Source: Thermoplasmata archaeon
GTDB lineage: Archaea; Thermoplasmatota; Thermoplasmata; Thermoplasmatales; ARK-15
NCBI GenBank assembly: GCA_049965455.1
Contig: JBMFWH010000002.1
Span: 1,210-65,209, forward strand
Reading direction: 5' to 3'
Length of the DNA stretch: 64,000 bases
Of the stretch, positions 1,772-48,092 are shown piece after piece. Under the pieces are notes generated by a model. The model was not told the DNA's origin. It saw only the letters and a list, made by a program, of their open reading frames with translations, and did not search any database. Position numbers and translations under genes: made by a program. How positions within the stretch are numbered: the stretch's first letter is position 1; each line of letters starts with the position of its first letter.

Positions 1772-2305
<534 letters not shown>

Positions 2306-2526
2306 TGTTTTAACCTCATCTTTCATCCTTAAAAACGGATTTTCCCTCCGCAAATGTTAAATTTTTCAAATCATTTACAATACAAGATATAATTCAAAAC
2401 GTAGTGTTTTAAGTGGAAATTTTAAATGGATATCACTAATTGTCTATATCTTGTTTATGCAACTGTTCAATAAAAGTATATTTAGTAGGTTGTACATTAT
2501 AAAAACTACAAGAAAGGTGATATAAG

Positions 2527-3663
2527 ATGGATGTAGAGTTGCATAGAGGTTTGAAAGGAGTATACATAACCAATACCGAGTTATGCTATATAGACGGACA
2601 GAACGGAAAGCTGTATTATAGGGGGTATCCAATAGAGGACCTGGCTACGAAATCGAATTTTGAAGAGACTTCGTATCTTCTTCTGAACGGAAAATTGCCG
2701 ACCAAAAAAGAACTTGATGATTTTAAAAAATCATTGGTAAAAAATAGAGAAATACCGGAAGAAGTTACGGACACAATAAAAAAAATTGGAAAAATTGCAC
2801 ACCCGATGGATACTTTGAGAAGTGCAGTATCTATGCTTTCAGCATATGACAAAAACATAACCAATACCAAGCCTGAAGAAAATTATAGAAGAGCTATAGA
2901 GCTAACTGCAAAGATTGCGTCAATTGTAGCAATGACAAAGAGAGTTAGAGAAAACAAGAAGATAATTGAACCGGATGCGAGTCTGGATCATGCTGCAAAC
3001 TTTATGCACATGATGGGGCTTAACACAGATCCATTATCTGTGAAAACAATGGATGTAGCTTTGATTTTACATCTTGAACACGGAATGAATGCGTCTACGT
3101 TTTCCTGCGTAGTCACTGCATCAACATTGGCAGATTTGTATGCATCTATTACCTCAGGTATTGCTACTTTAAAAGGTCCTTTACACGGTGGCGCTAATGA
3201 AAAAGCACTTGCGATGTACAGGGCTATTGGAAAGCCAGAAAATGTTGAAACATATATCCGTGAATCTTTCGATAGAAAAGATAGAATAATGGGCTTTGGC
3301 CACAGAGTTTACAAGAACTACGACCCGAGAGCAAAAATCTTGAGAAAGTACATGGAGGATATCGGGAATAGAAACGGGGACAAGGAAAACCTCTTGAAAA
3401 TCGCATTAAAAGTAGAAGACATGATGATAAAAGAACTGGGTACCACAAAAGGTATCTGGCCAAATGTAGATTCTTTTTCAGGGGTTGTATACAACGATCT
3501 TGGAATTCCTATAGACATGTTCACTCCGATCTTTGCGGTTGGAAGAATTGTTGGATGGAGCGCACATGTAATGGAATATCTTAAAGAGAACGAACTGTTG
3601 AGGCCTCTTGACAATTATATCGGCAAGCTAGACCTAAAGTATGTACCGATAGAGAATCGATAA
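2527..3663 (+). CDS. gltA: citrate synthase
   Basis: 378 aa with LHLEHGMNAST, GPLHGGANE and GFGHRVYKNYDPRA signatures. Confidence 0.93.
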   Translation: MDVELHRGLKGVYITNTELCYIDGQNGKLYYRGYPIEDLATKSNFEETSYLLLNGKLPTKKELDDFKKSLVKNREIPEEVTDTIKKIGKIAHPMDTLRSAVSMLSAYDKNITNTKPEENYRRAIELTAKIASIVAMTKRVRENKKIIEPDASLDHAANFMHMMGLNTDPLSVKTMDVALILHLEHGMNASTFSCVVTASTLADLYASITSGIATLKGPLHGGANEKALAMYRAIGKPENVETYIRESFDRKDRIMGFGHRVYKNYDPRAKILRKYMEDIGNRNGDKENLLKIALKVEDMMIKELGTTKGIWPNVDSFSGVVYNDLGIPIDMFTPIFAVGRIVGWSAHVMEYLKENELLRPLDNYIGKLDLKYVPIENR

Positions 3664-13027: not shown

Positions 13028-14446
13028 ATGTTTAAAGATTTGAGAGAATATATAGAAACGTTAAAAACCAATAACATGCTTACGGAGATTAATACTGAGA
13101 TAAGTGCAGATCTTCAGATTTCTAAGATCCTGAGGGAGTACCTTCCTCTAAAAAAATCGATTATTTTCAACAATGTACATGGGTACAAAATGAAGGTATT
13201 CGGAAATGCATTTGCATCGATGGAGCACATGCACACTGCCCTGAATCTTACAGACTTTTCAGAGCCAGCAAACAGGATATTAGAACTTACAAAACAGTTG
13301 CCCGGGGGATATTACGAAGCATTAAAACAGCTATCCAAGCTGAAAGATCTATTTTCAGTAAAGCCCAAATCCGTTAAGAATGGGCCTGTAAAAGAGGAAG
13401 TTTCAGATAAACTTGATTTTAACTCTCTTCCTGTTCTGAGAACCTGGCCTGGAGATGCAGAGAGATTCATTACGTTCCCTTTGGTGGTAACAAAATCAAA
13501 AGATGGCAGATACAATATGGGAGTTTATAGAATGCAGATCTATGACCCCAAGACTGCAGGTATGCACTGGCAGATACATAAACATGGTGCGGAAAATTTC
13601 GAAGAGTCTACAGGAAATATCGATGTAGCAGTGGTGATTGGCGCAGATCCGGCTACGATATATTCAGCAGTAGCCCCTGTTCCAAAGCAGATTGATGATT
13701 ATTTATTCTCTGGCCTTTTAAGAGGATCGCCTCTGGAGCTTGTAAGTTGTGAATCGATAGATTTAGAAGTTCCTGCAAATGCTGAGATAGTACTGGAAGG
13801 GTATGTGAAAAAAGACGAGTTAAGAGAGGAAGGACCGTTCGGGGACCATACAGGATACTATACGCCCCCAGAAAAATATCCGGTATTTCATCTAAAAAAC
13901 GTAATGATGCGATCTGACCCTATATATCATGCCACTGTTGTTGGCAGGCCCGTGATGGAAGATGCCTATATTGGGAAAACAATAGAACGCATGTTTTTGC
14001 CACTGATACAGATGTTTTTACCAGAAGTTATAGACATTAACTTGCCTTTTGAAGGGGTTTTTCATAATATATTATTGGTTTCTATAAAAAAGAGGTTTCC
14101 TGGCCAAGCAAGAAAAGTCGTGTTTGGATTATGGGGCCTGGACATGCTAGCTCTAACCAAATATATAATCGTGGTAGATAGCGATATAAACGTTCAGAAT
14201 CTTGGGGAAGTATTATGGGCTCTGGGCACTAGATCAGATCCAAAAAGAGATAGCATAGTCACAGAAGGACCATTGGATGTATTAGATCATGCTTCTTACA
14301 GAGAAGGATTTGGTGGTAAGATGGGAATAGACGCCACTAAAAAACTGAAAAATGAGGGATATGACCGGGACTGGGCTGATACAATAGAAGAATCAAGAGA
14401 GATAGAAAAATGGTTTGAGCAAAGGAAGAAAGATTATGGGCTCTAA
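13028..14446 (+). CDS. ubiD: UbiD-family (prenyl-FMN dependent) decarboxylase
   Basis: 472 aa with RYNMGVYRMQ, GPFGDHTGYY and the MEDAYIGK region typical of UbiD. Confidence 0.9.
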   Translation: MFKDLREYIETLKTNNMLTEINTEISADLQISKILREYLPLKKSIIFNNVHGYKMKVFGNAFASMEHMHTALNLTDFSEPANRILELTKQLPGGYYEALKQLSKLKDLFSVKPKSVKNGPVKEEVSDKLDFNSLPVLRTWPGDAERFITFPLVVTKSKDGRYNMGVYRMQIYDPKTAGMHWQIHKHGAENFEESTGNIDVAVVIGADPATIYSAVAPVPKQIDDYLFSGLLRGSPLELVSCESIDLEVPANAEIVLEGYVKKDELREEGPFGDHTGYYTPPEKYPVFHLKNVMMRSDPIYHATVVGRPVMEDAYIGKTIERMFLPLIQMFLPEVIDINLPFEGVFHNILLVSIKKRFPGQARKVVFGLWGLDMLALTKYIIVVDSDINVQNLGEVLWALGTRSDPKRDSIVTEGPLDVLDHASYREGFGGKMGIDATKKLKNEGYDRDWADTIEESREIEKWFEQRKKDYGL

Positions 14447-15317
14447 CTTTGACCCTGGTGCTGCTAAAAGTACTAGTAAAAAGATCGTTTTATTTTTCAG
14501 ATTTATAAGGGTTGAACACACATTATTTTCATTGCCTTTCGCTTACATTGGCTCTTTTTTAGCGTTACGTAATATACCGACGCTCTTGCAGTTTTTATTG
14601 ATTGCCATAGCGGTATTCGGAGCAAGAACTGGCGGAATGGCAATGAACAACTTAGCGGATAGAAACATAGACAGATTAAATCCTAGAACAAAAGACAGAC
14701 CTACCGCTACCGGGATCATTTCAGCCAAAGATACAATATATTTTGTAATTTTCAGCTATTTATTATTTGAAATCTCCGCTTATTTTTTAAATCCACTGAG
14801 TTTCAAGCTATCTCCATTTGTCGTGTTGATTGGCGTAATATACCCGTACACAAAGAGATTCACGAGCAATGCGCATTTGTTTATGGGATTGAATAATGCC
14901 ATAGCTCCGGTTGGAGGATGGATCGCGGTTTCTGACTCTTTTGACCCGAGAAGCCTGTTTCTATTTTTTGCAGTAATGCTCTGGGTTGCAGGGTTTGACA
15001 TTATTTATTCTTTAATGGACGAAGATTTTGATCGGTTAAATCATTTACATTCTTTTCCAGTCTTATTTGGCAAAAAAAGATCCTTGTACATATCCTTGCT
15101 TTTTCATATTCTTACGATCTCCTTTCTAATAGCATTTTATTTTGTCTATCCCCTCTCCATATATTATATCTTTCTTATAATTATAATTGCAATGCTATTG
15201 TTTTATCAACAATACCTTGTTAATTTAAGACTTGAGAATATAGAAAAAGCCTTTAATATTAATCTTTATATTGCAATACTGCTATTTTTCTCTATATTTC
15301 TTGGAGTTTTTTTATAG
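14415..15317 (+). CDS. ubiA: UbiA-family aromatic prenyltransferase
   Basis: Polytopic membrane protein with NNLADRNIDRLNPRTKDRP and a second Asp-rich motif (DIIYSLMDEDFD). The likely start is MGSNF at about 14436, overlapping the ubiD stop. Confidence 0.85.
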   Translation: MSKGRKIMGSNFDPGAAKSTSKKIVLFFRFIRVEHTLFSLPFAYIGSFLALRNIPTLLQFLLIAIAVFGARTGGMAMNNLADRNIDRLNPRTKDRPTATGIISAKDTIYFVIFSYLLFEISAYFLNPLSFKLSPFVVLIGVIYPYTKRFTSNAHLFMGLNNAIAPVGGWIAVSDSFDPRSLFLFFAVMLWVAGFDIIYSLMDEDFDRLNHLHSFPVLFGKKRSLYISLLFHILTISFLIAFYFVYPLSIYYIFLIIIIAMLLFYQQYLVNLRLENIEKAFNINLYIAILLFFSIFLGVFL

Positions 15318-15399
15318 GAGGCAATCTAAATTGATTTTTATCTTTTAAATAAAGGTTATATATAGGTTAAAATTATCCAGTATTTAAAGTGGTGAAATT

Positions 15400-15954
15400 A
15401 TGGGCAATGAAAGTAAGATAAATATTGAAAATATCGTAGCTTCAACTACCCTTGCAGAGAAACTGGATCTTAGCAAGATCGCTTTGGCTCTTGACGGTTC
15501 AGAATATGAACCTGAGCAGTTTCCAGGGTTAATATATAGATTAACTGAACCTAAAACCGCTGTATTAATATTCAGAAGTGGCAAAGTGAACTGCACTGGC
15601 GCCAAAGATCTAAACAGCGTAAAATTAACAATCCAGACTATTGTTAAAAAACTTAAAAGTGCAGATATAGATGTATATGATGAACCTGAGATAATTGTCC
15701 AGAACATAGTAGCAGTATATGACCTGAATGCAGAACTTAACTTAACGGACATTGCGATGTCCCTGGGCCTAGAAAACGTAGAATATGAACCTGAGCAGTT
15801 TCCAGGACTGGTTTACAGGGTAGAGGATCCGAAAGTCGTGCTATTGCTGTTTGGATCAGGGAAAGTTGTATGCACTGGTGCTAAAAAAGAAGAAGAGATA
15901 TTAGAGGCAGTAGCGAAACTTAAGAAAGAATTAACAAAAGTAGGGTTCTTATAA
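15400..15954 (+). CDS. tbp: TATA-box binding protein
   Basis: Two direct repeats, each with EYEPEQFPGL(I/V)YR...GK(V)..TGAK. 184 aa. Confidence 0.95.
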   Translation: MGNESKINIENIVASTTLAEKLDLSKIALALDGSEYEPEQFPGLIYRLTEPKTAVLIFRSGKVNCTGAKDLNSVKLTIQTIVKKLKSADIDVYDEPEIIVQNIVAVYDLNAELNLTDIAMSLGLENVEYEPEQFPGLVYRVEDPKVVLLLFGSGKVVCTGAKKEEEILEAVAKLKKELTKVGFL

Positions 15955-15986
15955 TTTTATTTATTTTTTATGATTTTAGTGATGCA

Positions 15987-17537
15987 ATGAACTATTATTT
16001 AATTTTTTTAATTATTTTAATAATCTGGTTTGGATTTTTATATGCGATAAATTCTTATTTAAAAAATAATAAAAATTTTTCCTTGTATGGCCCTGCGCTT
16101 ATGTTTAAAACAGAAAGGGGAAAAAAATTTATTGAGCGAATATCAAGATATAGGATATGGAAAAGATACGGTGATTTTGGGGTAATACTGAGTTTTGCCA
16201 TTATGTTTGGCACTCTGGCATTACTGATCTGGGAGGCTACGCTGGTACCTTTAATTCCAAAATCAAGAGCGCCATCACCCATTGAGGCGCTGGGATTACC
16301 TGGCATAAACCCTTTGATTCCAATATGGTACGGACTTTTAGCCATAATTATAGCAGTAGTGATCCACGAGTTTTCTCATGGAATACTCACTAAAACTCAA
16401 AAAATGAAAATCAATTCGTTAGGCATATTATTTTTCATAATTCCGGTTGGTGCTTTCGTAGAGCCTGATGAAGAAGAACTTTCAAAAGCGCCAAGATTAA
16501 AAAGGATGAGGGTATATGCTGCAGGAGCAACTACAAACATTGTTGTAGCCACAATTGCAGCTTTGCTGTTTCTGTCATTGTTCAGTGGCGTGACTCCCAT
16601 ATCTCATGGCTCAGTGATTACATCCGTTTATTCAGATCCTTTTAACAGCTTAAACACAGGAATGGAAATAACCAATTTTAATGGCACTTCTATAAATTCC
16701 ACGACTCAGTTCAATTCAGTAATGGTTAATCCAGGATCAAAAGTAAACGCAACGGTATTTTATAACAATAACTTCCACAATATCGAGATCTATGCTGGGG
16801 TAATGATAATAAATGTTCTAGCAGGCACTCCTGCCGCGAATTCAGGATTAAAATCCGGAGAGCTCATTAAAAATATAAATAATGTTACTATTTACAATAC
16901 GCAAATACTTGACAATTTTCTGGGCAGTAGCCTGTCTGGGCAGATGATTAATATATCTTTATTGCAGTATTCGAGCACTGGCATTATGCAGATTAGCAGG
17001 TCTGTTACGCTGATGGATAAATATGCTTATTACGCCCAGAACGATCCTGCCGCAAATAACAATTCATATAAAGGGCATGGCTTTTTGGGTATATCATCTT
17101 CTTATCTGGGAGTAGCAATGATGAATGTGAGTTTGATACCTGCTATCATGTCTAATCCGGTCGGCTCGATCAGCATACAAAACCTGTTTCATGGCTTTTT
17201 ATTGTTTATCTCACTCCCTTTTCTTGGTCTAGCGCCTCTATCAGGCTCTCTTGCCAGCCTATATACCACTCCTTTTTATGCCCCTCTTTTCTGGATCATT
17301 GTTAACATAATTTACTGGATCTTCTGGCTTGATTTAATGCTGGGCATGACCAATTTGTTACCCGCAATACCTCTTGATGGCGGGTACCTCTTTAGAGATG
17401 CATTTTCAGAGTTTTTGCACAGGATTAACTTAAAAATAAAAAATTTTGATCGAGCTGCCAATATCATAACAGGAACATTATCCCTATTGATCCTATTTTT
17501 GATTTTATGGGAGTTTATAGGCCCAAGAATTTTTTGA
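15987..17537 (+). CDS. site-2 protease family (M50) intramembrane metalloprotease with PDZ-like insert
   Basis: HEFSHG (HExxH) in a TM helix, NLLPAIPLDGG near the C-terminus, and multiple TM segments. Confidence 0.85.
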   Translation: MNYYLIFLIILIIWFGFLYAINSYLKNNKNFSLYGPALMFKTERGKKFIERISRYRIWKRYGDFGVILSFAIMFGTLALLIWEATLVPLIPKSRAPSPIEALGLPGINPLIPIWYGLLAIIIAVVIHEFSHGILTKTQKMKINSLGILFFIIPVGAFVEPDEEELSKAPRLKRMRVYAAGATTNIVVATIAALLFLSLFSGVTPISHGSVITSVYSDPFNSLNTGMEITNFNGTSINSTTQFNSVMVNPGSKVNATVFYNNNFHNIEIYAGVMIINVLAGTPAANSGLKSGELIKNINNVTIYNTQILDNFLGSSLSGQMINISLLQYSSTGIMQISRSVTLMDKYAYYAQNDPAANNNSYKGHGFLGISSSYLGVAMMNVSLIPAIMSNPVGSISIQNLFHGFLLFISLPFLGLAPLSGSLASLYTTPFYAPLFWIIVNIIYWIFWLDLMLGMTNLLPAIPLDGGYLFRDAFSEFLHRINLKIKNFDRAANIITGTLSLLILFLILWEFIGPRIF

Positions 17538-17553
17538 GAATATATATGTATTT

Positions 17554-17835
17554 TTGATCATAAAAATGCTATTTAAATCGAAACCAAAAATTTTAATAGT
17601 GCACTCTCTATCATTCATAGTGAGTGAAACAATGAGCAGATGCATTATTTGTGGGAAAAAGCTAGCATCAGAAATCAGTATCTATTGCCCAGACTGTGAA
17701 TATGAACTGAAGAGAGTGAGGTTGAAAGGGGAAGAGTCCCTTTCTGATTACATTGCAAGGGTCGAAGAGGATAGAAGCGAGATGATTAAACCAGGGAAAA
17801 ATATTAAAAGTTTGATGGAGTGGGATAAACAATGA
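17554..17835 (+). CDS. small zinc-ribbon protein
   Basis: CIICGKK...CPDCEY. The probable true start is MSRC at 17632. Its stop overlaps the next gene's start (ATGA). Confidence 0.5.
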   Translation: MIIKMLFKSKPKILIVHSLSFIVSETMSRCIICGKKLASEISIYCPDCEYELKRVRLKGEESLSDYIARVEEDRSEMIKPGKNIKSLMEWDKQ

Positions 17836-18974
17836 ACAAAAAGATAAAGGATATTATGAGCAAAAGCGCAGTTACTGCTACTTCTGAAGATACTTTATCT
17901 ACGCTTTTGAACAAGATGAAAGATTACAATGTCAGAGAAGTGCCAGTAATAGACGAAAAAGGTACGTTGCTAGGATACTTAGATTACAAGACCATTGCCA
18001 AAAGAAAAAATATTTCTCTTTATTCCAGAGTCATGAACATGATGATACACCCAAGCTTTATAAAAGATAGCGATGATATGGATACAGCAATAGAGGCAAT
18101 GGTAAACAGCGGATTAAGGGCATTGCCAGTAGTTAATGGCAACAAAAAGCTGTTAGGAATAGTATCCATCACGGATATAATATCTCAATTAAAAGATTCT
18201 GATGAATTTTCAGACTTGAGCATTGAGGACATCATGATAGCAGATCCAGCAGTGCTAAACAAAGAACAGAGCATATTTGACGCCTTGAGCTTTATGGATA
18301 AATGGGACGAGCTTAGTGCGCCTGTTGTTGACGACGACAACAAGCTTGTAGGCATGGTTCATATGCCAGATATCACCAAGATAATCTGGAGAGGCAAAGA
18401 ACGACTTCAGTATGGAACTTACAAAGGCCAGAAAGAAAAGATCGAGATGAAGATCAAAGATATAATGTGCGCTCCTGTTAAAATATCTAAAAATTCAACA
18501 GTGAAAGATGTTCTAAACGTATTAGCACAGTCAAAGACCGACATGTGCATAATAGTGGATAGAGAAAACAACCCGGTAGGCATAATAACCCAGAAAGACA
18601 TTCTTGATCAGGCATACAACGGAAAAAATGAAAAAGGGGTATTTGTACAGATTACGGGCCTTGAAAGTTCAGATCCGGAGCCATATAATATTGTATACGA
18701 GATGATCGAAAAATTCTTGAATCGAATAAACAAATACAGCAAGTTTAAGCCACAGCTAATGACATTTCATGTAGAGATACACAAGCCGGAGGGTGAAGAG
18801 GTAAAATACAGTGTTCGTGCAAAATTACAGACCGATAAAAAAACGTTTTTCTACACAGACTATGACTGGAACATGTACAAACTCTTTAAAAACGTATTAG
18901 ATAGATTGGAGAGAAATATAAGAAAAGAGAAAGAGCGCACAGAGGAAAAGCGTGTAAAAGTCAGAGGCGAGTGA
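17832..18974 (+). CDS. four-CBS-domain protein with C-terminal HPF/RaiA-like (S30AE-fold-like) domain
   Basis: Four CBS repeats (for example VREVPVIDEKGTLLGYL, ALPVVNGNKKLLGIVSITDI, SAPVVDDDNKLVGMVHMPDI, CIIVDRENNPVGIITQKDI). The tail VFVQITGLE...KYSVRAKLQTDKKTFFYTDYDWNMYKLFKNVLDRLERNIRKEKER parallels HPF/YfiA. Confidence 0.6.
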   Translation: MNKKIKDIMSKSAVTATSEDTLSTLLNKMKDYNVREVPVIDEKGTLLGYLDYKTIAKRKNISLYSRVMNMMIHPSFIKDSDDMDTAIEAMVNSGLRALPVVNGNKKLLGIVSITDIISQLKDSDEFSDLSIEDIMIADPAVLNKEQSIFDALSFMDKWDELSAPVVDDDNKLVGMVHMPDITKIIWRGKERLQYGTYKGQKEKIEMKIKDIMCAPVKISKNSTVKDVLNVLAQSKTDMCIIVDRENNPVGIITQKDILDQAYNGKNEKGVFVQITGLESSDPEPYNIVYEMIEKFLNRINKYSKFKPQLMTFHVEIHKPEGEEVKYSVRAKLQTDKKTFFYTDYDWNMYKLFKNVLDRLERNIRKEKERTEEKRVKVRGE

Positions 18975-18978
18975 GCAA

Positions 18979-20358
18979 ATGTATGAAGAGCTTTTAAAAA
19001 AACTGGAAAAAAAAGTAAAGTATGCAGATATACGGAAGCAGAGGTACCAAATATCTGAATTAGTAATGAAAAACGGAGTGGTTAGCGGAGTAAATTACAC
19101 GGAAGAAGAGGGTATTGCCATTCGAGTTTTAAATCATGGAATCGGATATCTGACCACCAACAAACTTGATGAAAGTTATATTGCAGAGCTTGCAGAAAAA
19201 GCGATTAAGTTTGCTTCGTCCATAAATCGCGATAACTTAAAATTCTCTGAAGAACCCGTATACAAAGAGAATTGGAGCGTGGAAGAAACCATAAAAATAA
19301 AGGATGTTTCTAATGAAGACAAGCTCCAATATTTAAAAGAGGTAGAGGCAGAGATGATCTCTTCACAGGTGCCTATGAGAATACAATCGATAAGAGACAA
19401 GATTGTAGAGACAGAGTATGTTAATACAGAAGGCACTACAATTAGCTCCACATTACCTTCAGTTAGCTATTTTTGCATGATGGGAGTTATGGAAAACGGA
19501 AACTTTGAACAGTCTTCGATAGAGCACGGGAGAACGGGAGGATATGAAGCATGGAAAGAATGGAACATTATAGATCGTGTTAAAGATGAGATCAATATAT
19601 TAAAGAAAGTGGCAAAAAGCAAGAAAATACCAGAGGGAAAAGTAGATCTTGTAGCCGGGCCTGAAGTTGCCGGAATTGTTGCACATGAATCAGGAGGGCA
19701 TCCTTCAGAATCAGATCGCATATTTGGCAGGGAAGCGGCACAGGCAGGAGAGTCTTTTATAAAGCCTGATATGATTGGAGAGAGAGTAGGTTCAGACATC
19801 GTTAACGTGGTAGATGACCCGACATACGAGCACAGTTACGGATACTATAAATATGATGATGAGGGCGTTAAAGCCAGAAAAAGGTATCTTTACAAAAACG
19901 GCAAAATAAATGAATTTTTAACAAATAGAGAATATGCATCCAGGCTTGGAACAAAGAGCAATGCTGCAGCCAGATCTTCATGGTGGGACCAAGAGCCAAT
20001 CGTGAGAATGAGCACTACATATATAGAGCCTGGAGAACACAGCGTTGAAGAGCTTATTGAGGATATTAAGTATGGAGTCTACATGAACTCATTCACAGAA
20101 TGGAACATTGATGATACCAGATTTAATGAAAAATACATAGGTCGTGAGGCTTACTTGATAGAGAACGGGGAGATTAAAGAGACGATCAAGAGACCGGTCC
20201 TTGAAATAACCACCACCGGATTCTACGGAGCTATAGATGCAATTAGCAAAGATTTCAAGCTTTTTGCAGGGACATGTGGCAAAGGAGATCCTATGCAAGG
20301 TGTTGATGTATTGATGGGCGGGCCCCATCTGAGATTAAGAGATGTTTATCTGAGGTGA
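18979..20358 (+). CDS. tldD: TldD-family metalloprotease
   Basis: HESGGHPSE (HExxxH), the GTCGKGDP region and family-typical length of 459 aa. Confidence 0.88.
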   Translation: MYEELLKKLEKKVKYADIRKQRYQISELVMKNGVVSGVNYTEEEGIAIRVLNHGIGYLTTNKLDESYIAELAEKAIKFASSINRDNLKFSEEPVYKENWSVEETIKIKDVSNEDKLQYLKEVEAEMISSQVPMRIQSIRDKIVETEYVNTEGTTISSTLPSVSYFCMMGVMENGNFEQSSIEHGRTGGYEAWKEWNIIDRVKDEINILKKVAKSKKIPEGKVDLVAGPEVAGIVAHESGGHPSESDRIFGREAAQAGESFIKPDMIGERVGSDIVNVVDDPTYEHSYGYYKYDDEGVKARKRYLYKNGKINEFLTNREYASRLGTKSNAAARSSWWDQEPIVRMSTTYIEPGEHSVEELIEDIKYGVYMNSFTEWNIDDTRFNEKYIGREAYLIENGEIKETIKRPVLEITTTGFYGAIDAISKDFKLFAGTCGKGDPMQGVDVLMGGPHLRLRDVYLR

Positions 20359-21680
20359 AATTGATGTTAGATCTTGCCGAAAATATTGTGAAAAAATTAC
20401 AGATGCAGGGTATTGATGAAGTTTCGGTCATTATTGAAGAGAGAGACCAAAAACAGATCAGGTTTTCTAACAACGAAGTGGATATTTACAAAAATTGGAT
20501 AGACTCAGAGATCCGCCTGTTTTTAGCAAAAGGCAAAAAAACTTTGAGCACCACTATCAAAGATTTCAATAAGATCGACGAGCAGTTATCAACGTTTGTA
20601 AAGCTGGTAAACCAGGTACCGGACAATGATGATTTTTACGGCTTGAACAGTAATAAGCAAACCTACCGCGCGCATGTTCCAGATCTAAAACTGAAAGAAC
20701 TGGACGATCTTTCATATTATGCTAAAAATGCGATTAATGGAGCTTTAGAAAAAAATGCAAAGCGAGTTTCTGGAACAATATACCATACCTTTGAAAAGAT
20801 ATATCTAGCCACCAATTACAATAGCGTATATGATGAGCTGGTCAATTTTGAAATTTCAGTGAGGGCATTCAACGAGTTCAATGCCCCTGGCGCAAGCGTC
20901 TTCATGACCTCAGATCATAGGCAGCTGAGAGAAATTGATCCGTATGATGTTGGACAAGAGGCTGGGGAATTTGCAAGAATGGTGGAAAATCCAGTAGAGG
21001 GTAAAGAGGGAAAGTTAGACATACTGTTTCATCCGCTCTGTTTTGGATCTTTGGTCACGGATGCAATGAACATGGCCTCAGCGTTTCAGGTAGACTCAGG
21101 CATGAGCTTTTTTGCGGACAAAATTGGAAAAAAAGTAGCATCTGAAAAACTTACATTATATGATGATCCAACATTTGAGCAGGGTGTTGGATTCAGATTA
21201 TTTGACGATGAAGGTACCGCTACTAGGAAAAACACCATAATAAAAGATGGTGTTTACAAAACACATTTGCACAGCTATTCTACCGCCAAGAAATTTGGCA
21301 CAGAAACTACTGGAAATGCAGGTATCGTGTTTCCTGGAGCTTGGCAGCCGGTAATGCAGGAAGGAAAAGAGAGCGAAACTGATATTCTGGCAAACATGAA
21401 GAGAGGATTATACATCCTGAATACATGGTACACGAGGTATCAGGATTACAGAAATGGAGATTTTTCGACTATTCCGAGAGATGGAATATTTTATATTGAA
21501 GATGGAGAAATAGTAGAGTCATGGAAAGGTATCAGGATCAGCGACAATATACTGAGAATTCTGAAAAATATTGACTATATCAGCGTTGACCGAGAACAGG
21601 TAAAATGGTGGGATACCGTAATGCCTTCTGTACTTCCATACGTGCTCGTCAAGGATGTGAACATTACAAAAGCAAAGTAA
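20355..21680 (+). CDS. pmbA: PmbA/TldE-family protein (TldD partner)
   Basis: Paralogous to the upstream gene but lacks HExxxH. 4-nt overlap with tldD. Confidence 0.85.
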   Translation: MKLMLDLAENIVKKLQMQGIDEVSVIIEERDQKQIRFSNNEVDIYKNWIDSEIRLFLAKGKKTLSTTIKDFNKIDEQLSTFVKLVNQVPDNDDFYGLNSNKQTYRAHVPDLKLKELDDLSYYAKNAINGALEKNAKRVSGTIYHTFEKIYLATNYNSVYDELVNFEISVRAFNEFNAPGASVFMTSDHRQLREIDPYDVGQEAGEFARMVENPVEGKEGKLDILFHPLCFGSLVTDAMNMASAFQVDSGMSFFADKIGKKVASEKLTLYDDPTFEQGVGFRLFDDEGTATRKNTIIKDGVYKTHLHSYSTAKKFGTETTGNAGIVFPGAWQPVMQEGKESETDILANMKRGLYILNTWYTRYQDYRNGDFSTIPRDGIFYIEDGEIVESWKGIRISDNILRILKNIDYISVDREQVKWWDTVMPSVLPYVLVKDVNITKAK

Positions 21681-21692
21681 AAAATAGGTTTT

Positions 21693-22811
21693 TTATAGCC
21701 CTATGTCCCCTAATTTTTCAGGCAGATAAGTATCCGTAACGTAGTTTAATCCGTATTTAGCCAAAGCCTGTTGTTCTGCCTTTTTGCCGATTTTGAGCAT
21801 CAGTTCAATCTCATCTTTCCAGAAAGCAGTGTTAAATCTCGGGTCTGTCTTTTCAGCATTGAGCGCATCTATGTCTTTGTCATTTAGATTGTCTGTAGGA
21901 AGCTTATAGTTCAATATATCATTAGCTGTTATACCTATGAATTCCGCACTGGGCGTAGCCAGATACTCGGATATGTGCGCGGTCTTGATTGCCCCGTACG
22001 CAACTGAAGCGTAGATCCTGAAAGACCAGGGATCTCCATCTGTGAATATCACAATCGGCAACTTAAGTTCGGTATTCATTCTTTTAATAAGCCTTCTGGT
22101 GCTTCTTGCAGGTTGCCCTTTTAAATGCACCAGAATGGCTCTGAAATCTTCATCAAACCTGTTTTCTACGAGTCTGTCGAACATACCACCTGTTTCAATT
22201 GCTATCACAAAATCTGCATCCACGTCCTTAAACTTTATTTTATCAGACTCTACGTTGTAAGGGATCGTATATCCTGCATCGCCTACATCATCACGACAGT
22301 TTATTTTTCGAGGAACTCCTTTCCTGTTTATCTCTTCCAACGTGATGTTCCCTATTACCGTGGCCCCGTCCTCTTCAGGCCTAAGCTTAAAATCTTCCCT
22401 CATGTATTTAGTCACGATTTCAATATCTTCAGCAAGCCTGTTAGACTCGTCCTGCGTATGAAATTTTGCAAGGTTCCAGCCTTCAGAAATATAGTACATC
22501 TCTCTCAGTGTTGAAGACTTGCTTTGCTCGATCATCTCTTTTATGAATTCTAGAAGGTACATGGTCCTTAAAAGCGTATATGCACCGTCCAGCTTTTTTG
22601 CAGACCTGGTAATTTTAGAATCTCCGAGAACCCACACTCCGGATCTAAGATCAAAATTTATGTTGTACTTGTTTCTGGCTTCAAGACTCATCTTTGGAAT
22701 CTTACCGGCATTCATGTCTTCATATATGTCAGATACCAATCGCTCCAATGCTTTTAAAGCATCGTCATAGTTCGTCATTTTCATCTTCCTCCATTTCGCT
22801 ATCGTCAGCAA
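21693..22811 (-). CDS. top6A: DNA topoisomerase VI subunit A (Spo11-like)
   Basis: Conserved YYISEGW region and a Toprim part ([20 protein letters not shown]). The true start is probably M at 22778 or 22784. Confidence 0.93.
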
Positions 22812-24705
22812 TAATCGCCTTTAAGTCCTCTATATTCCAGTCTCCTGGCAACGGTTCAGCACCTACCACATATACGGGATTTATGCCTTCTACATAATAT
22901 GTGCTTTCTTTGTAAGTACCGGCCATAATATTGGTAAGCGTAAACTTTAAAATCTTCTGCTCCAGACTCTTTATTGATATTTCCCACTCTATGGAATCAT
23001 TTTCTGGATCTATCTTGCAGTCACGGTCTGCACTGCCTTCCAGCACCTTGCCTTCAGGCAGATCTGCGTATAGCGTGAATTTTTTTTCATCAGCCGTGAA
23101 ATTTGATACTCTAACAGTAACTTTTACCGTGTCTTTTGACTCTTCAATATCCTCGTCGATCCAGACTACATTCATTATCTGCGTAATTATCGGCTCTAGC
23201 TTTGGAACTGGCTTATTCAATATATTGGCACTTTTAAGCGCAATTTGTGGCAATATCTTTTGAACCAGAAAGAACTTTTCCGATAGTTTTGCCTTGATCT
23301 CTTTCTTTGTTAAAAAGGTACGAATCTGCCTTGCAAGATCTCTCAATGCAAGCTTTATCTCATCTATAATCTCAGGCACTTCTGCTATTGCCTCTTTTGA
23401 TTCAGACGTGAACGGAACTTTGGTGGATGCAACATGCACCAATACTATTGCTGGTCCCGAAGGTATGCCTGCCCCACTTTTTTGTTCAAACCCGTATTTT
23501 CTCCAATCCATGTCAGATACTGCCTTAGTGATTGCACAGGCTCCTGCTTGATATAAAAGAGGTACTTTGTTTGCAAATCGCATTATTGATATCTGTTCTT
23601 CTTTTGGCAGGTCACCGCCATATACCATTCCCGCCTCCACGATAAACACGTTGCCATGATATATTGCCGGTTTTCTGGAAACAGGTATGGCGTAAAAGCT
23701 TGGTTTATATGCTCCCAATACATTTTTTAAGCCTTTCTTAATCAGGTTTTCTCCAATCGGAGAAAGAGATTCTGAAGAAGGCGGCAAAAGCTTTGTCTGC
23801 TTGAAAGATTCCAGTATGTTTTTAGCGTCTACAAGTTTTAAAGTGGAAGGGTCCATACTCGGGTCTAATTTTGTCATAGTACATATTTCAACTGCTATTT
23901 TGTTGCTTACCTTACTGAACTCGCCGCTGAGGAAGCTTGTGAGTGTTTTGTGTTTTGTGTTTTTTGCAAGCTCTAAAATGTCCCCGATCTCTAACCCCAT
24001 AGGATGCGGTTTTGTTTCTTTTGGCGGTGCTGGAATCTTGTTAGTTACACGATCAAATATTATAACTGAACCGTCAGGATCTGTAAACTTGATCTTTGCA
24101 TAAGGGTTTACTATTGCACTGTTTTTCAAATATTCGATTATTGACTGTTTCCCTTTTACGTATTTTCCTTTCATATAAAATTCTATCTTTAGCCCATGCT
24201 CTTTAGAAACTATGATAACGTCTTCAGATACTGTTGCCGCCCGGTTCTCTTTGGTGTCAATAAACATTTTTACCTGATACGCAACATCAGATTCCTTTGT
24301 TTTAGAGGTAATAGATATTGGCTTGCCAGATGTAATCTGAGAATATAACACCACCGCAGAGATACCGATCCCCTGCTGTCCCCTGGCTTGCTGCATCGAG
24401 AAAAACTTGGAGCCGTACAGAAACTGGCCAAATATTTTTGGTATTTCTTTTCTTATTATGCCAGGTCCATTATCCTCTACAGATAGGTAATATTCATCCT
24501 TGCCGACGTTTTTCAAAACCACTTCAATTTCCGGCAATATTTCTGCCTCTTCACAAGCGTCCAGAGAGTTATCAACGCTTTCTTTTACGGCCATGATCAA
24601 CGATTTTTGAAGCGAGTCAAACCCTAAGATCTGCTTGTTCTTTTCAAAAAATTGTGCTATTGAGATCGCTCTCTGCTTTTTTGCCAGCTCTTCTGCAATT
24701 ACCAT
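22765..24705 (-). CDS. top6B: DNA topoisomerase VI subunit B (GHKL ATPase)
   Basis: Bergerat-fold motifs [17 protein letters not shown] and GQQGIG. It lies directly upstream of top6A. Confidence 0.93.
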
Positions 24706-43030: not shown

Positions 43031-43795
43031 TTAATTAAATTTTATTTTTAAGGTGCTAATGTACTGGTATATTTCTTGGTTTCTGTCTTTAGCTAGTTTT
43101 TTTAATATCTTGTTTATTCCACTCCCGTACTGTGCAGCTTTCTTTTTCCTTGCTGCAATTTCTTCCGGCAATCCGAGAATTATCGCTGCTTTTCGGAGTA
43201 TTATCTTCTCGCTATCATTGTTTATCTTGTCTGAATCGGTGAGAGATCCTGAAAAATTTAGTATCTCTGAATCTAAGTAAGGGGTTTTAAGTGCTTTATT
43301 AAAATAGTTTGCTATCTTTCTCTCTTTAACAATTGTGGAGTTTAAAAGTTTGTTCAAATCTTCTTTCATTCTCATTGGCTCTGTCTTATATTTCTTATAG
43401 CCTCCAAAAACTTCATCGCTCCCCTGCCCTGTTAATAGAATATTTTCTTTCGCGTTTTTACACACAAAATATAATGGCAGATTAAAGGACAATTCCAGAG
43501 CATCCTGTGAAGAATCGATATTTATCAGTTCTATTATACCTTCATACACGTCCTTCTCGCTGATAACGATCTTATTTATGTTTATTCCCAAAAGTTTGCC
43601 AGCACTATCAGCAGCCTTGAAATCATGGGAGCCTTCCACTCCAACAGTATATGCAACAATACTTTTCAGTTTAGATGCAACATAGGCAAGTAAACTGCTA
43701 TCTATGCCACCTGATAAAAGTATTGCCCAGTCATCAGCAATTACATTTTGCACAGCTTTCTGAATCAAAGCTGCTAACTGTTCTTCCTTACTCAT
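43031..43795 (-). CDS. asparagine-synthase-domain (PP-loop) protein without glutaminase domain
   Basis: PP-loop LLSGGIDSS and TGQGSDEVFGGY. 254 aa only. 4-nt overlap with glyS. Confidence 0.7.
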   Translation of the reverse strand: MSKEEQLAALIQKAVQNVIADDWAILLSGGIDSSLLAYVASKLKSIVAYTVGVEGSHDFKAADSAGKLLGININKIVISEKDVYEGIIELINIDSSQDALELSFNLPLYFVCKNAKENILLTGQGSDEVFGGYKKYKTEPMRMKEDLNKLLNSTIVKERKIANYFNKALKTPYLDSEILNFSGSLTDSDKINNDSEKIILRKAAIILGLPEEIAARKKKAAQYGSGINKILKKLAKDRNQEIYQYISTLKIKFN

Positions 43796-45483
43796 AACAC
43801 TTCAAATTTTAATGTACCATCAATCAGTTTGCTCAAATTTACAATAATGTCTGAGATGTTCAATCTTACCTGCTTTGTTGAGTCACGCTCTCTCAACGTT
43901 ACTGTTTGATCACTTAAAGTTTGATAATCTACGGTTATGTTGAACGGTATTCCTATCTCATCAGCTCTAGCATACCTTTTACCTATAGACCCCGAATCAT
44001 CATAGTACGCTTTAAAATGATTATTTACTAGAAGGTCGTGAATTTTTTGGGCTTCTATGTCTAAACCGTCTTTTGACATCAATGGAAAGACAGATACTTT
44101 AATTGGCGCAATTTTAGGCGTCAATCTTAAAACGCGAAACTCTGAATCTTCACGCTCATAATACGAATTCTCAAGAAGTGAATAGAGAATACGGTCTATG
44201 CCATATGATGGCTCTATAACATTTGGAACGATCTTTTCGCTGCTTATTTTTTCAACTTTTTCTATAATGGTATATGCTTCCTTAGGAACTACTATTTCCT
44301 CTCCGTTAACCTGCACTTTTAAATCTTTTTCTTCTGTTACTTTATGAGCTTCTATTTCTTTGGCAATCAATTTTGCCTTATCTTTGAATATAGGCCCTAA
44401 TACTTTCTCTATCGGTTTATATTTCTTTATGTTTTGTGTGATAGGAGTTTCATATCTTATCGTTACTTTTAAGTCTTTTCCTGATTCTAACTCATGCTGG
44501 GTAAGATCATAAGTGCCACGATCTGCAATGCCTACACATTCTATCCATCCATATGAGCTCTCAATCTCACAGTCCCAGCAATCTATTGCATAATGTGCTA
44601 GCTCTGTGTCTGTGTGTTGCCTGAACCTGATTTTATTGGCAGGTATACCTATATCAATTAGAAATAGATGTGTTAACCCTATAAAATAGGCAATTGCCTC
44701 AGAACTAATAATTTTATTATCAACCCCGTCTTTCAAAGGCCCTGTGATATCTTGCTCATTTTTGCTGATTATCCTAACGTTCAAATCCTTTATAGTATCA
44801 AATTTTTTCCATTTTTTGTTTTTTGGGTCAAAGAATAGTTCCACTTCCGCCATATTGAATTCTCTCTGCCTTATTAACCCCTGCCTGGGTGCAATTTCGT
44901 TTCTGAACCCTTTCCCGATCTGTGCAACTCCAAATGGTAATTCTTCCCTAAAATATCGATATATGTTATTGAAATTAACAAATATTCCCTGCGCTGTTTC
45001 TGGGCGTAAATATCCAGACTTAAAGTTGCCCGGTCCTACTTTCGTTTCAAACATCAGGTTAAACTTTTCTGGTCTGGTTAACTCGCCTCCACATACCGTA
45101 CATTTTATATTAAATTTTTCAATGCCTGTAATTATGTCTTCGTTGCTTTTAATTACAAAATCAGGCACTTTCTCCTTTAATAGCTCATCCACCCTAAAAG
45201 CAGTTTTACAGTCTTTACAATAACTGATGTAGTCTGTGAACTCTTTTAAATGTCCAGACGCTCTAAACACTTCCTCGGGAGAAATGTTCGGGGTGTCTAT
45301 AAAAGCCAGCCCTTCTCTATTAACATAATAATCTTTCCAGACAGATATTATATTATCTTTTACAAGTGCTCCTATGGGCCCATAATCATAAAATCCTGAA
45401 AACCCACCATATATCTCGAATGAGCCCCAGAATATGCCCCTTCTTTTGGCAAGATCAAACAGTTTTTTGCTTAACATGTACAT
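43792..45483 (-). CDS. glyS: glycyl-tRNA synthetase (archaeal/eukaryotic alpha2 type)
   Basis: 563 aa with RPETAQGIF, FRNEI.PR, EPSYGIDR and a C-terminal anticodon-binding domain. Confidence 0.92.
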   Translation of the reverse strand: MYMLSKKLFDLAKRRGIFWGSFEIYGGFSGFYDYGPIGALVKDNIISVWKDYYVNREGLAFIDTPNISPEEVFRASGHLKEFTDYISYCKDCKTAFRVDELLKEKVPDFVIKSNEDIITGIEKFNIKCTVCGGELTRPEKFNLMFETKVGPGNFKSGYLRPETAQGIFVNFNNIYRYFREELPFGVAQIGKGFRNEIAPRQGLIRQREFNMAEVELFFDPKNKKWKKFDTIKDLNVRIISKNEQDITGPLKDGVDNKIISSEAIAYFIGLTHLFLIDIGIPANKIRFRQHTDTELAHYAIDCWDCEIESSYGWIECVGIADRGTYDLTQHELESGKDLKVTIRYETPITQNIKKYKPIEKVLGPIFKDKAKLIAKEIEAHKVTEEKDLKVQVNGEEIVVPKEAYTIIEKVEKISSEKIVPNVIEPSYGIDRILYSLLENSYYEREDSEFRVLRLTPKIAPIKVSVFPLMSKDGLDIEAQKIHDLLVNNHFKAYYDDSGSIGKRYARADEIGIPFNITVDYQTLSDQTVTLRERDSTKQVRLNISDIIVNLSKLIDGTLKFEVL

Positions 45484-45497
45484 TCCTTTTTCAGATA

Positions 45498-46370
45498 TTA
45501 TTTATAATGTTGATGCTGCGATAATACCGATATTAAATCAATATCGTAAATCATTGCCACCAGATCATCATATGCATTTTTTACCGGTAATTGGCTAAAA
45601 TCATTATCTACCATTATACTTGCTACCTTGGATATAGGGGTCTTGGTATGTGCATATACTGGGTCTTTAATCATCAACTCACTTACTTTTATGGCCGGAA
45701 TCTCCAATTTTTCTTCTAAATATAATATTTTTAATACGTTTCTTATTCCTTCCCATGTCCATGCATCTTCATCTTCGCCCATACCTACCTGGGACATGGA
45801 TGTAGATACATCTACTTTGGCGCTATTTATTATATCCCGGTCTGTGATAATTCCAACCAGGTTTAAGTCATCATCAATAATCGGAAATGCAGTTAGTTTG
45901 GTAAGAGACATAGTTTTGTAAACTACCTTTAAAGGTACATCCACATATATTGGAATACAAGGGTTACGGATGTATTTTTCTATCGGATTTGAAATGTTTT
46001 CTTCTATTATTATTTTCAAAAACTCTTTTGGAGTTATTATCCCTTGCAACTTGTTTTTATCATTAACAACGGCGATGTGTCTCCTGTTTATTTTTACCAT
46101 TGAATTTACTGCTTCTGCAATAGATTCCGTACCCATAATTTTCGGGCCATCTTTGCGCATCAATAACGCGATTTGCTCTTCTTTTGGATTTTCAAAGATG
46201 TCTCTTCTGCTCACAATACCCAAGAACGTGTCTTCCTCATCCACTATCGGTAATGCGCTGACATTCTTTTTAGCCATTAATTTAAGTGCATCTGTCCTGC
46301 TCGCCGGGGCTTTTAATACTATTGGATTTTTATTCATGATTTTTGTAATTTTATCAGTCATCAGAATCAC
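45498..46370 (-). CDS. CBS-domain protein (four CBS repeats)
   Basis: Repeated h-P-V/I-hD-x-x-x-G-I-h-T/S-x-x-D motifs (ALPIVDEEDTFLGIVSRRDI and others). Confidence 0.8.
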   Translation of the reverse strand: MILMTDKITKIMNKNPIVLKAPASRTDALKLMAKKNVSALPIVDEEDTFLGIVSRRDIFENPKEEQIALLMRKDGPKIMGTESIAEAVNSMVKINRRHIAVVNDKNKLQGIITPKEFLKIIIEENISNPIEKYIRNPCIPIYVDVPLKVVYKTMSLTKLTAFPIIDDDLNLVGIITDRDIINSAKVDVSTSMSQVGMGEDEDAWTWEGIRNVLKILYLEEKLEIPAIKVSELMIKDPVYAHTKTPISKVASIMVDNDFSQLPVKNAYDDLVAMIYDIDLISVLSQHQHYK

Positions 46371-46640: not shown

Positions 46641-48092
46641 ATGTTTATAGAAAAGTTTGAATATATTAAAACAGGGCTTACATTCGATGATGTACTCTTA
46701 ATACCCTCTAGAACAAGTGTTGATCCTAAAGATACTCATGTCTCTTCTTCTGTTTCTAGGCATATAAAATTGAAGATTCCAATAGTCAGTTCTCCTATGG
46801 ATACAGTAACTGAAGATGCCATGGCCATTGCAATGGCTAGAATGGGGGGATTAGGAATAGTCCATAGAAATTTAACAGTGGATGAACAGGTGGCAATTGT
46901 AAGAAAGGTAAAGAAAGAAGAGAGTATAATAATAAGGGATTTATATACTGTTTCCCCTGATACGCCGATTAAAGATGCTCAGAAAATCATTTTAGATAAA
47001 AAAATTACGGGCTTGCCTGTCATAATGGAAGGAAAGTTAGTGGGGATACTGACTTCAAGAGATATTAGATTTTATAAGGGAGAGAACCTATCAGTAAAAG
47101 ACCTTATGACAAAAGAAGTGGTAACCGGCTCAGAAGATATCAAGATAAGTGAGGCAATAAAAATATTGCATGATAATAGAATTGAAAAATTACCAATCGT
47201 AGATGGCCAGAATAGATTGGTAGGATTGATAACTGCCAGTGATATTGAAAAGAGAGAAACATATCCCGATGCAACTAGAGATAAAGAGGGCAGGCTGAAG
47301 GTAGGTGCTGCTGTTGGCCCGTTTGATATTTTAAGGGCAGAGATGCTTGAAAAATCAGGAGTAGATTTGCTGGTGGTTGACACCGCTCATGCACATAACG
47401 AGAAAGTTATGGCAGGAATAAAAGAAATTCGTAAAAAGCTGGATATTGACATTATTGCCGGGAACATTGCCACTAAAGAATCTGCAGAAGATATCATAGC
47501 ATTGGAAGTAGACGGATTGAGAGTCGGCATAGGGCCAGGTTCAATCTGTACTACCAGGATAATTGCCGGCGCTGGAATGCCACAATTAGAAGCTATTTCA
47601 CAGGCCGCAGAAATTGCTGAAAAACAGCAGATTCCGGTGATTGCAGATGGAGGCATTAGATATTCTGGAGACATTGTAAAAGCTATTGCTGCAGGAGCAA
47701 ATGTAGTAATGCTAGGAAGCCTTTTGGCAGGCACGGATGAGGCCCCGGGAGAAGAAATGTTTATAGAAGGAAAGAAATTTAAGAGTTATAGAGGAATGGG
47801 CTCATTAGGCGCAATACAGAAAGGCATTTCAGACAGATATGGTAAGATAGGTGGCACAAAGTTTGTTCCGGAAGGCGTTGAAGCAGCAATACCATATAAA
47901 GGCAAAGTTAAAGACACGATTTTACAGCTGATTGGTGGGATCAGATCAGGAATGGGGTATGTAGGGGCAAAAGATATAGATTCATTGAGAAAAAATGCCA
48001 GATTCATCAGGATTACGCAAAGTGGTCTGATTGAGAGCCATCCACATAACGTCACCATAATCTCCGATTCGCCAAACTATCCTGTTAAATAG
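46641..48092 (+). CDS. guaB: IMP dehydrogenase
   Basis: GLTFDDVLLIPS, an internal CBS pair, the catalytic loop GIGPGSICTTR, and GGIRYSGD. Confidence 0.95.
   Translation: MFIEKFEYIKTGLTFDDVLLIPSRTSVDPKDTHVSSSVSRHIKLKIPIVSSPMDTVTEDAMAIAMARMGGLGIVHRNLTVDEQVAIVRKVKKEESIIIRDLYTVSPDTPIKDAQKIILDKKITGLPVIMEGKLVGILTSRDIRFYKGENLSVKDLMTKEVVTGSEDIKISEAIKILHDNRIEKLPIVDGQNRLVGLITASDIEKRETYPDATRDKEGRLKVGAAVGPFDILRAEMLEKSGVDLLVVDTAHAHNEKVMAGIKEIRKKLDIDIIAGNIATKESAEDIIALEVDGLRVGIGPGSICTTRIIAGAGMPQLEAISQAAEIAEKQQIPVIADGGIRYSGDIVKAIAAGANVVMLGSLLAGTDEAPGEEMFIEGKKFKSYRGMGSLGAIQKGISDRYGKIGGTKFVPEGVEAAIPYKGKVKDTILQLIGGIRSGMGYVGAKDIDSLRKNARFIRITQSGLIESHPHNVTIISDSPNYPVK

Follow-up and report, generated by a model that had tools for sequence, protein, structure and literature searches.

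The stretch of DNA analysed here, referred to as the window, comprises 64,000 nucleotides of contig JBMFWH010000002.1 from a Thermoplasmata archaeon (assembly GCA_049965455.1). On its forward strand it carries a gene, here called hibA, that is an intact open reading frame (ORF) with an ATG start and with its stop codon inside the coordinates 17832..18974. The encoded protein of 380 residues has a module of four CBS domains at its N-terminus and an HPF/RaiA-like domain at its C-terminus, and the gene stands in a compact cluster with a small zinc-ribbon ORF and the two genes of a TldD/PmbA-type protease. On the evidence set out below, we are confident that hibA encodes a HibA/AHA-type ribosome hibernation factor of this uncultured archaeon. 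The protein is a 100% match to an NCBI entry (P0001) from a Thermoplasmata metagenome-assembled genome (MAG).

The window protein joins a CBS tetrad to an HPF/RaiA domain

An earlier description of the gene, made from the letters and their translations alone (the sequence-only reading), had placed four CBS repeats over residues ~1-265. Pfam searches recover this arrangement, with PF00571 matching in four stretches (E=1.9e-45). An AlphaFold2 (AF2) model of the whole protein was built from 50 homologues, with a mean predicted local distance difference test score (pLDDT) of 82.4 and a predicted template modelling score (pTM) of 0.73, and it likewise contains four beta-alpha-beta-beta-alpha units within residues 1-263. 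Comparison of the whole model by Foldseek returned the CBS tetrads of SriA, AMPK-gamma and Dri, with template modelling scores (TM-scores) of 0.65-0.85, target-normalised.

The same reading had made out an HPF/YfiA layout in the C-terminal part of the protein and proposed a search against the Pfam family PF02482 (Ribosomal_S30AE, 'sigma-54 modulation protein / S30EA'). Residues 290-370 match this family with E=6.2e-8 and 33.7 bits, over a gathering cut-off of 23.7, and the C-terminal 116 residues alone score 35.1 bits. In the AF2 model the C-terminal part consists of a strand (271-275), a helix (282-300), three further strands (307-317, 325-334 and 338-345) and a final helix (348-379); a model of residues 265-380 alone has the identical topology (pLDDT 87.9). 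The predicted fold is thus a beta-alpha pair followed by three beta strands and a last alpha helix in both models, as anticipated, and the elements that had been picked out by eye, namely the VFVQITG strand, the YNIVYEMIEKFLNRINKY helix, the strands MTFHVEIHK, KYSVRAKLQT and KTFFYTD and the final helix, are those of the AF2 model. When the C-terminal model was compared with the PDB by Foldseek, the top 33 matches were all HPF/YfiA/RaiA/protein Y, plastid PSRP1 or mycobacterial homologues, with a best E-value of 2e-5 and TM-scores up to 0.82 (target-normalised). The HPF signal is a property of the family rather than of a single sequence, since 23 of 24 homologue C-terminal domains match PF02482 when searched singly. 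A profile of the C-terminal domain, searched against the PDB, ranked HibA first, followed by the chain 9l96_a and then by bacterial HPF/RaiA chains; the single unrelated chain came last, with E=0.35.

Two archaea-specific insertions, beta13-alpha11 and beta14-beta15, mark the HPF domain of HibA and AHA. With respect to these insertions, 81 residues of the window protein span 72 Pfam positions, and the match begins only at profile position 16. Sequence alignment places a 4-residue surplus in the beta2-beta3 turn of the window protein relative to HI0257.

An ordinary CBS protein with a tail rich in K and E might resemble HPF by chance or through composition. The GC content of the window is low (36.6%), the C-terminal tail is indeed K- and E-rich, and single-sequence phmmer searches against bacterial HPFs gave weak E-values of 1e-3 to 1. 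This explanation has to contend with a PF02482 score over the gathering cut-off, with matches of nearly all the homologous domains to that family, with a confident AF2 model of the exact topology whose 33 leading structural matches come from the HPF family only, and with end-to-end homology (next section) to HibA, the HPF fold of which is known from its ribosome-bound structure. We regard a chance resemblance as already refuted and its remaining probability as negligible.

The protein is homologous to HibA from end to end

HibA was discovered by cryo-electron microscopy (cryo-EM) in stressed Pyrococcus abyssi (Madru et al., Nat Commun 2026, PMC13324472). Its C-terminal domain occupies the 30S mRNA/tRNA channel like bacterial HPF, and its CBS module is seen at three places on the 50S subunit (the peptidyl-transferase centre (PTC), uL5 and the L1 stalk), covering the A, P and E sites. 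HibA inhibits translation in vitro, and its deletion in Thermococcus barophilus doubles the lag on exit from stationary phase and lowers 70S ribosomes by ~60% (PMC13324472). AHA is the same protein, found independently in Haloferax volcanii as HVO_2384 (Souza et al., bioRxiv 2026, PMC12934967). Its HPF domain lies on the 30S subunit; its CBS tetrad covers the A and P sites and has loop 3 inserted in the PTC; the knockout loses ribosomal proteins in stationary phase (PMC12934967). Both HibA and AHA are found on ribosomes at an abundance comparable to that of ribosomal proteins. AHA homologues number 3,160 in 17 phyla (PMC12934967), and HibA was detected in 47% of archaeal genomes, in a survey whose genome set takes in Aciduliprofundum boonei and several hundred Thermoplasmatota (PMC13324472). 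The treatment of HPF/RaiA as a bacterial and plastid family, on which the sequence-only reading had relied, is outdated by this distribution; the automatic JGI label on close homologues is already 'CBS domain-containing protein/ribosome-associated translation inhibitor RaiA'. The architecture is catalogued and was experimentally explained in 2025-2026, and the window gene adds one more orthologue.

Ribosome-bound P. abyssi HibA is deposited as 9SR9-9SRF and 9T7H (data-availability statement of PMC13324472). Searched as a single sequence, the window protein has as its best PDB match 9sr9_H, the 392-residue P. abyssi HibA, with E=4e-23 and an alignment that extends through the C-terminal domain. 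With a profile of 50 homologues the match becomes end to end, positions 6-375 aligning with HibA residues 4-379 (E=6.3e-75, 255.8 bits). The runner-up is 9l96_a, likewise a full-length CBS-HPF chain (E=3e-57). Chains that have CBS domains only (Dri, SriA, SriC/D and PH1780/HhpR-like) cover just profile positions ~6-267, Dri (9e6q_3) scoring 155.6, SriA (9znf_4) 145.4 and PH1780 139.6 bits. HibA also ranks first when the CBS module alone is searched as a profile against the PDB, narrowly over PH1780 (77.7 vs 74.7 bits). The earlier proposal of a hibernation factor made of a CBS tetrad and an HPF/RaiA domain is supported, this being the arrangement experimentally shown for HibA (PMC13324472) and AHA (PMC12934967).

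The 9l96_a chain (406 residues; entries 9l96, 9l98, 9l9c and 9l9v) has been solved and is labelled 'CBS domain-containing protein'. Its acidic sequence suggests a halophile source, and a search of the literature library for the PDB code 9L96 found no citing paper.

The window protein has the same order of parts and the same size as HibA of P. abyssi (PAB0961) and T. barophilus, in which the CBS module spans ~1-269 and the HPF/RaiA domain ~270-390 (392 vs 380 residues), and the long CBS3 loop with QYG..G.K is common to both. Identity between the two is low, however, the CBS1 region being alignable at profile level only, and the sources differ, HibA coming from Thermococcales hyperthermophiles and the window protein from a low-GC Thermoplasmata MAG. 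AHA, which belongs to the same family under another name and comes from a halophile, combines an AMPK-gamma-related CBS tetrad, whose loop 3 enters the PTC and whose AMP sites are in CBS3/CBS4, with an HPF domain bound to the 30S subunit. The window protein retains D180 and T253/D256 at the CBS3/CBS4 motif positions, a likeness to AHA drawn from its published description.

Three other groups of proteins resemble one or other part. Bacterial and plastid HPF, RaiA (YfiA, protein Y) and PSRP1 contain a homologous domain with the same fold as the window C-terminus, which by homology to HibA/AHA would occupy the same site in the 30S mRNA/tRNA channel. Bacterial HPFs are standalone domains of ~95-115 residues or, in long HPF, have a dimerisation domain at the C-terminus, whereas the window protein has its HPF domain at the C-terminus, behind a 264-residue N-terminal CBS tetrad, and ends in a longer terminal helix; the tetrad, absent from bacterial HPF, would also engage the 50S subunit, by analogy with HibA/AHA. 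SriA-D and ARC-A/P of Methanosarcinales and Dri of Thermoproteota have a related CBS tetrad and occlude the tRNA and mRNA sites. SriA is the best Foldseek match of the whole model (E=5e-21, target-normalised TM-score 0.85), and Dri and SriD match too. Unlike the window protein, these factors lack an HPF domain and have an occlusion element or a second tetrad instead; the family profile matches their CBS part only, and more weakly than it matches HibA. Their phyletic distribution is largely exclusive with that of HibA (PMC13324472, PMC12934967). AMPK gamma shares the four-CBS fold and has nucleotide sites 3 and 4, and many of its chains match the model at E ~1e-16 with identities of 13-18% in the Foldseek alignments, but it is a subunit of a kinase heterotrimer, with neither an HPF domain nor ribosome binding.

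Several points weigh against the assignment of hibA to the HibA/AHA family of hibernation factors. The NCBIfam model TIGR00741 (HPF/YfiA) scores the protein at 34.8 bits, under its equivalog cut-off of 40.9. Such a shortfall is expected of a divergent archaeal branch, and the score and the different architecture together make the domain a homologue and no bacterial-type equivalog. The single-sequence alignment to 9sr9_H begins only at residue 75, at low identity. The Foldseek search with the whole protein returned CBS-tetrad proteins only and no HPF or HibA chain, because the alignment is dominated by the CBS module, the larger of the two parts, and because the library, which runs to 8 April 2026, has no HibA entry, the HibA paper having appeared on 27 April. 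The evidence is moreover computational or taken from orthologues, and replication and recombination proteins have been found in pull-downs with Thermococcales HibA, which makes further roles possible. Domain architecture, fold and family membership, together with the retention of the loop and of the nucleotide-site motifs (next section), are shown for the window protein itself.

The PTC-loop equivalent and the nucleotide-site motifs are retained

The third CBS domain of the window protein carries a long basic loop, K189-E205, which aligns with residues 190-207 of P. abyssi HibA, the stretch of its third CBS domain that forms the PTC loop (PMC13324472); the two have the motif QYG...G[E/Q]K in common. 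The spacing from D180 to M212 is 31-32 residues in 43 of the 50 homologues, and the core of the loop is kept among them (G195 in 37, G199 in 35 and K201 in 31). In the AF2 model residues 188-202 have a pLDDT below 50, as expected if the loop takes up an ordered form only when bound to the ribosome. Its role at the peptidyl-transferase centre is taken from the HibA and AHA papers (PMC13324472, PMC12934967).

From the cryo-EM structures of HibA/AHA, a mechanism can be proposed for the window protein. Its HPF/RaiA-like domain would lie in the small-subunit mRNA/tRNA channel at the decoding centre, and its CBS tetrad would sit on the large subunit, covering the tRNA sites, with the long basic CBS3 loop extending into the PTC. 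Since one polypeptide would then contact both subunits, the vacant 70S ribosome would be bridged and held together, mRNA and tRNA binding would be blocked, translation would be silenced, and the ribosomes would be shielded from dissociation and degradation in stationary phase, starvation or stress. Ribosome binding, AMP binding and this physiological role in the source organism are what its orthologues lead one to expect.

The motifs of the nucleotide sites are retained as well. The ribose/phosphate motif G-h-h-[S/T]-x-x-D is intact in CBS2 (GIVSITD), CBS3 (GMVHMPD) and CBS4 (GIITQKD) and degenerate in CBS1. Its key positions are conserved among the homologues, D115 of CBS2 being kept in 49/50, D180 of CBS3 in 48/50, and T/S253 and D256 of CBS4 in 49/50 and 43/50, respectively. 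Judged by these motifs, binding of adenine nucleotides by the CBS module, at its CBS3/CBS4 sites, is very probable, and the pattern fits the AMP binding at CBS3/CBS4 seen in AHA and HibA.

The sequence-only reading went further and called the silencing nucleotide-gated. In true gating the protein would be loaded on ribosomes at a high AMP/ATP ratio, for instance through exposure or ordering of the CBS3 loop, and set free by ATP. It would then act as an energy-charge switch and not as a factor governed by how abundant it is or by competition. Across the family the nucleotide-site motifs of CBS2-4 are conserved, and the CBS module of HibA prefers AMP (dissociation constant 12 µM) over ADP (65 µM) and ATP (113 µM) (PMC13324472). 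Ribosome-bound AHA carries two AMP molecules at CBS3/CBS4, beside loop 3, from which its authors proposed a gating model, offered only as a hypothesis (PMC12934967), and the related ARC-A/P factors are reportedly mobilised from ribosomes by ATP. Nevertheless, 5 mM AMP or ATP left the conformational classes of reconstituted HibA-70S largely unchanged, with no clear effect on binding, and no nucleotide was seen in native HibA complexes (PMC13324472). Because AMP and ATP did not clearly alter the ribosome binding of HibA, gating is not established, and we consider it conceivable but doubtful for the window protein.

Other CBS proteins in the window and a possible role off the ribosome

A tblastn search with the window protein found no second HPF domain in the window and three further CBS proteins (Table 1): a standalone four-CBS protein, an IMP dehydrogenase, and a CBS pair followed by a zinc ribbon. 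The standalone tetrad is HhpR/PH1780-like (NF053603, E=3e-44, below the curated cut-off; 2yzq, E=7.5e-37) and has a long loop separating CBS3 and CBS4. HhpR is a CBS tetrad of the CM-3 family, a transcription regulator, and CM-3 is the one family reported not to be exclusive with HibA (PMC13324472). As CM-3/HhpR is the only standalone CBS tetrad type in the window and occurs there together with hibA, the window fits the published pattern of HibA co-occurrence. The gene adjoins a putative glycyl-tRNA synthetase gene at 43792..45483, which was assigned by reading of the sequence.

The existence of a transcription regulator with a related CBS tetrad, and the recovery of Thermococcales HibA in pull-downs with replication and recombination factors, raise the possibility that the window protein has its main role away from the ribosome. 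In that case it would be a CBS-type regulator, such as an HhpR-like transcription regulator or a replication/recombination partner, with the HPF-like domain serving as an RNA- or protein-binding module. We think this very unlikely: the CBS module is nearest to that of HibA and not to HhpR, the window has a distinct HhpR-like gene, conservation extends to both the HPF domain and the PTC loop, and the two characterised orthologues are present on ribosomes at levels like those of ribosomal proteins.

Table 1 Features of the window that bear on hibA, with strand and basis of assignment
Feature	Coordinates	Strand	Basis or remark
hibA/AHA orthologue, 380 aa	17832..18974	+	ORF list and end-to-end family-profile match to P. 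abyssi HibA
CBS module, four CBS (two Bateman modules), residues 1-264	17832..18623	+	Pfam, AF2, Foldseek
Long basic CBS3 loop, K189-E205, counterpart of HibA 'PTC loop' / AHA 'loop 3'	18396..18446	+	Alignment
HPF/RaiA-like C-terminal domain	18639..18968	+	PF02482, TIGR00741, AF2 models, Foldseek, profile search of PDB
CxxC...CxxC zinc-ribbon ORF, 67 aa	17632..17835	+	Stop overlaps hibA start (ATGA)
TldD-type zinc metalloprotease, HESGGH motif	18979..20358	+	Starts 4 nt past hibA stop; Pfam PmbA_TldD domains 1-3
PmbA/TldE-type partner, no HExxxH motif	20355..21680	+	4-nt overlap with tldD stop; PmbA_TldD_3rd E=6e-64; NCBIfam
Standalone four-CBS protein, 290 aa, HhpR/PH1780-like over full length	45498..46370	-	NF053603, PDB 2yzq
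IMP dehydrogenase	46641..48092	+	tblastn CBS match
CBS pair then C-terminal CxxC...CxxC zinc ribbon, 180 aa	55585..56127	-	tblastn CBS match

hibA lies in a conserved cluster with a zinc-ribbon gene and tldD-pmbA

In the window hibA is part of a forward-strand cluster, znf-hibA-tldD-pmbA. The zinc-ribbon ORF begins MSRCIICGKK...CPDCEYELKRVRLKGEE... and has two CxxC pairs; no Pfam or NCBIfam family matched it. Its stop overlaps the hibA start, and it is probably co-transcribed with hibA. Its conservation begins at the ATG at 17632 and not at the TTG at 17554 given by the ORF finder. An AT-rich, TATA-like sequence, ATTTAAAT, occurs at 17571-17578, upstream of this ATG. The window tldD matches the NCBIfam archaeal TldD model with E=1e-72, below its equivalog cut-off.

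The loci of homologues from genomes and metagenomes were compared, the metagenome scan using a 10-sequence alignment, and were grouped into 13 lineage clusters at 80% HibA identity. The tldD-pmbA pair comes immediately after hibA in 9 of these 13 clusters, and in 9 of the 11 that have 35% or more identity to the window protein (window 17632..21680 on the forward strand; loci L001, L008, L012-L015, L018-L019 and L021-L032). Distances between hibA and tldD range from -26 to +11 nt, and pmbA follows tldD in every locus with enough sequence. In 11 fetched loci, which represent four of the 13 lineage clusters with the window's included, hibA is directly preceded by the zinc-ribbon ORF, at 42-89% identity. 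The flanks vary among lineages: FtsZ, SerRS, ARMT1-like or YjeF genes stand upstream of the cluster, and genes for DUF1614, FtsJ, an epimerase or SOD downstream of it. Since the hibA-tldD-pmbA trio persists amid flanking genes that are different in each lineage, we reject mere residual local synteny as its explanation; the cluster is maintained, not just inherited.

The linkage is not a general property of HibA, an interpretation that we also rejected. In the loci examined, tldD-pmbA is absent beside hibA in the more distant Thermoplasmata homologues (34% identity or less), and it is also absent in two lineages at 42-44%. In one of these (L016, 44% identity) a hydrophobic membrane-protein ORF, read as DUF1614-like by eye, lies directly after hibA at 1877..2318 (minus strand). 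In A. boonei a DUF1614 gene follows pmbA (L008 8830-9522), and this correspondence suggests a secondary loss of tldD-pmbA in L016.

Neither the HibA paper (PMC13324472) nor the AHA preprint (PMC12934967) mentions TldD, PmbA or operon context, and the znf-hibA-tldD-pmbA cluster around the window gene sets it apart from HibA as described there. A search for published work connecting TldD with hibernation turned up only a TldE homologue upregulated in stationary phase in Thermococcus kodakarensis, which is suggestive as a hint and not evidence. We put forward, as a speculative and on balance improbable proposal, that a Thermoplasmata clade related to Aciduliprofundales has an operon of hibA with TldD/PmbA (and with the zinc ribbon in a sub-clade) in which hibernation is functionally coupled to the protease. 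Both papers leave open how archaeal hibernation factors come off the ribosome (PMC13324472, PMC12934967). TldD/PmbA might remove HibA or clear peptides on leaving dormancy; alternatively it might recycle peptides and proteins on entering dormancy. For the zinc-ribbon protein, a role as an accessory or regulatory subunit, so far unrecognised, is conceivable.

Farther out, the neighbours at 13028..17537 and 21693..24705 are ordinary archaeal housekeeping genes. They include two overlapping genes, for a UbiD-like decarboxylase and a UbiA prenyltransferase, and one for a PDZ-containing M50 site-2 protease; the minus strand carries both subunits (A and B) of topoisomerase VI. A gene for TBP (15400..15954, forward strand) lies 1-2 kb upstream of hibA. 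It does so likewise (2222..2800) in L010, the locus of a distant Thermoplasmata homologue without tldD-pmbA, and the proximity of TBP and hibA in these two loci may be residual synteny.

Discussion

Reading of the raw sequence here re-derived a real discovery, namely that archaea hibernate ribosomes with a fusion of an AMPK-gamma-like CBS tetrad and an HPF/RaiA domain. The practical gain is one of annotation, because in NCBI the window protein and most of its homologues (P0001-P0120) are still named just 'CBS domain-containing protein'. Around half of these listed homologues contain the PF02482 domain without having a precomputed match to it. Annotation also lags in the PDB, where chain H of 9SR9 carries the label 'Dehydrogenase'.

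The sole element that is new relative to the HibA and AHA papers is the znf-hibA-tldD-pmbA cluster, which we offer as a lead and not as a finding. If the linkage is functional, it would give archaeal ribosome hibernation a protease partner for entry to or exit from the dormant state.

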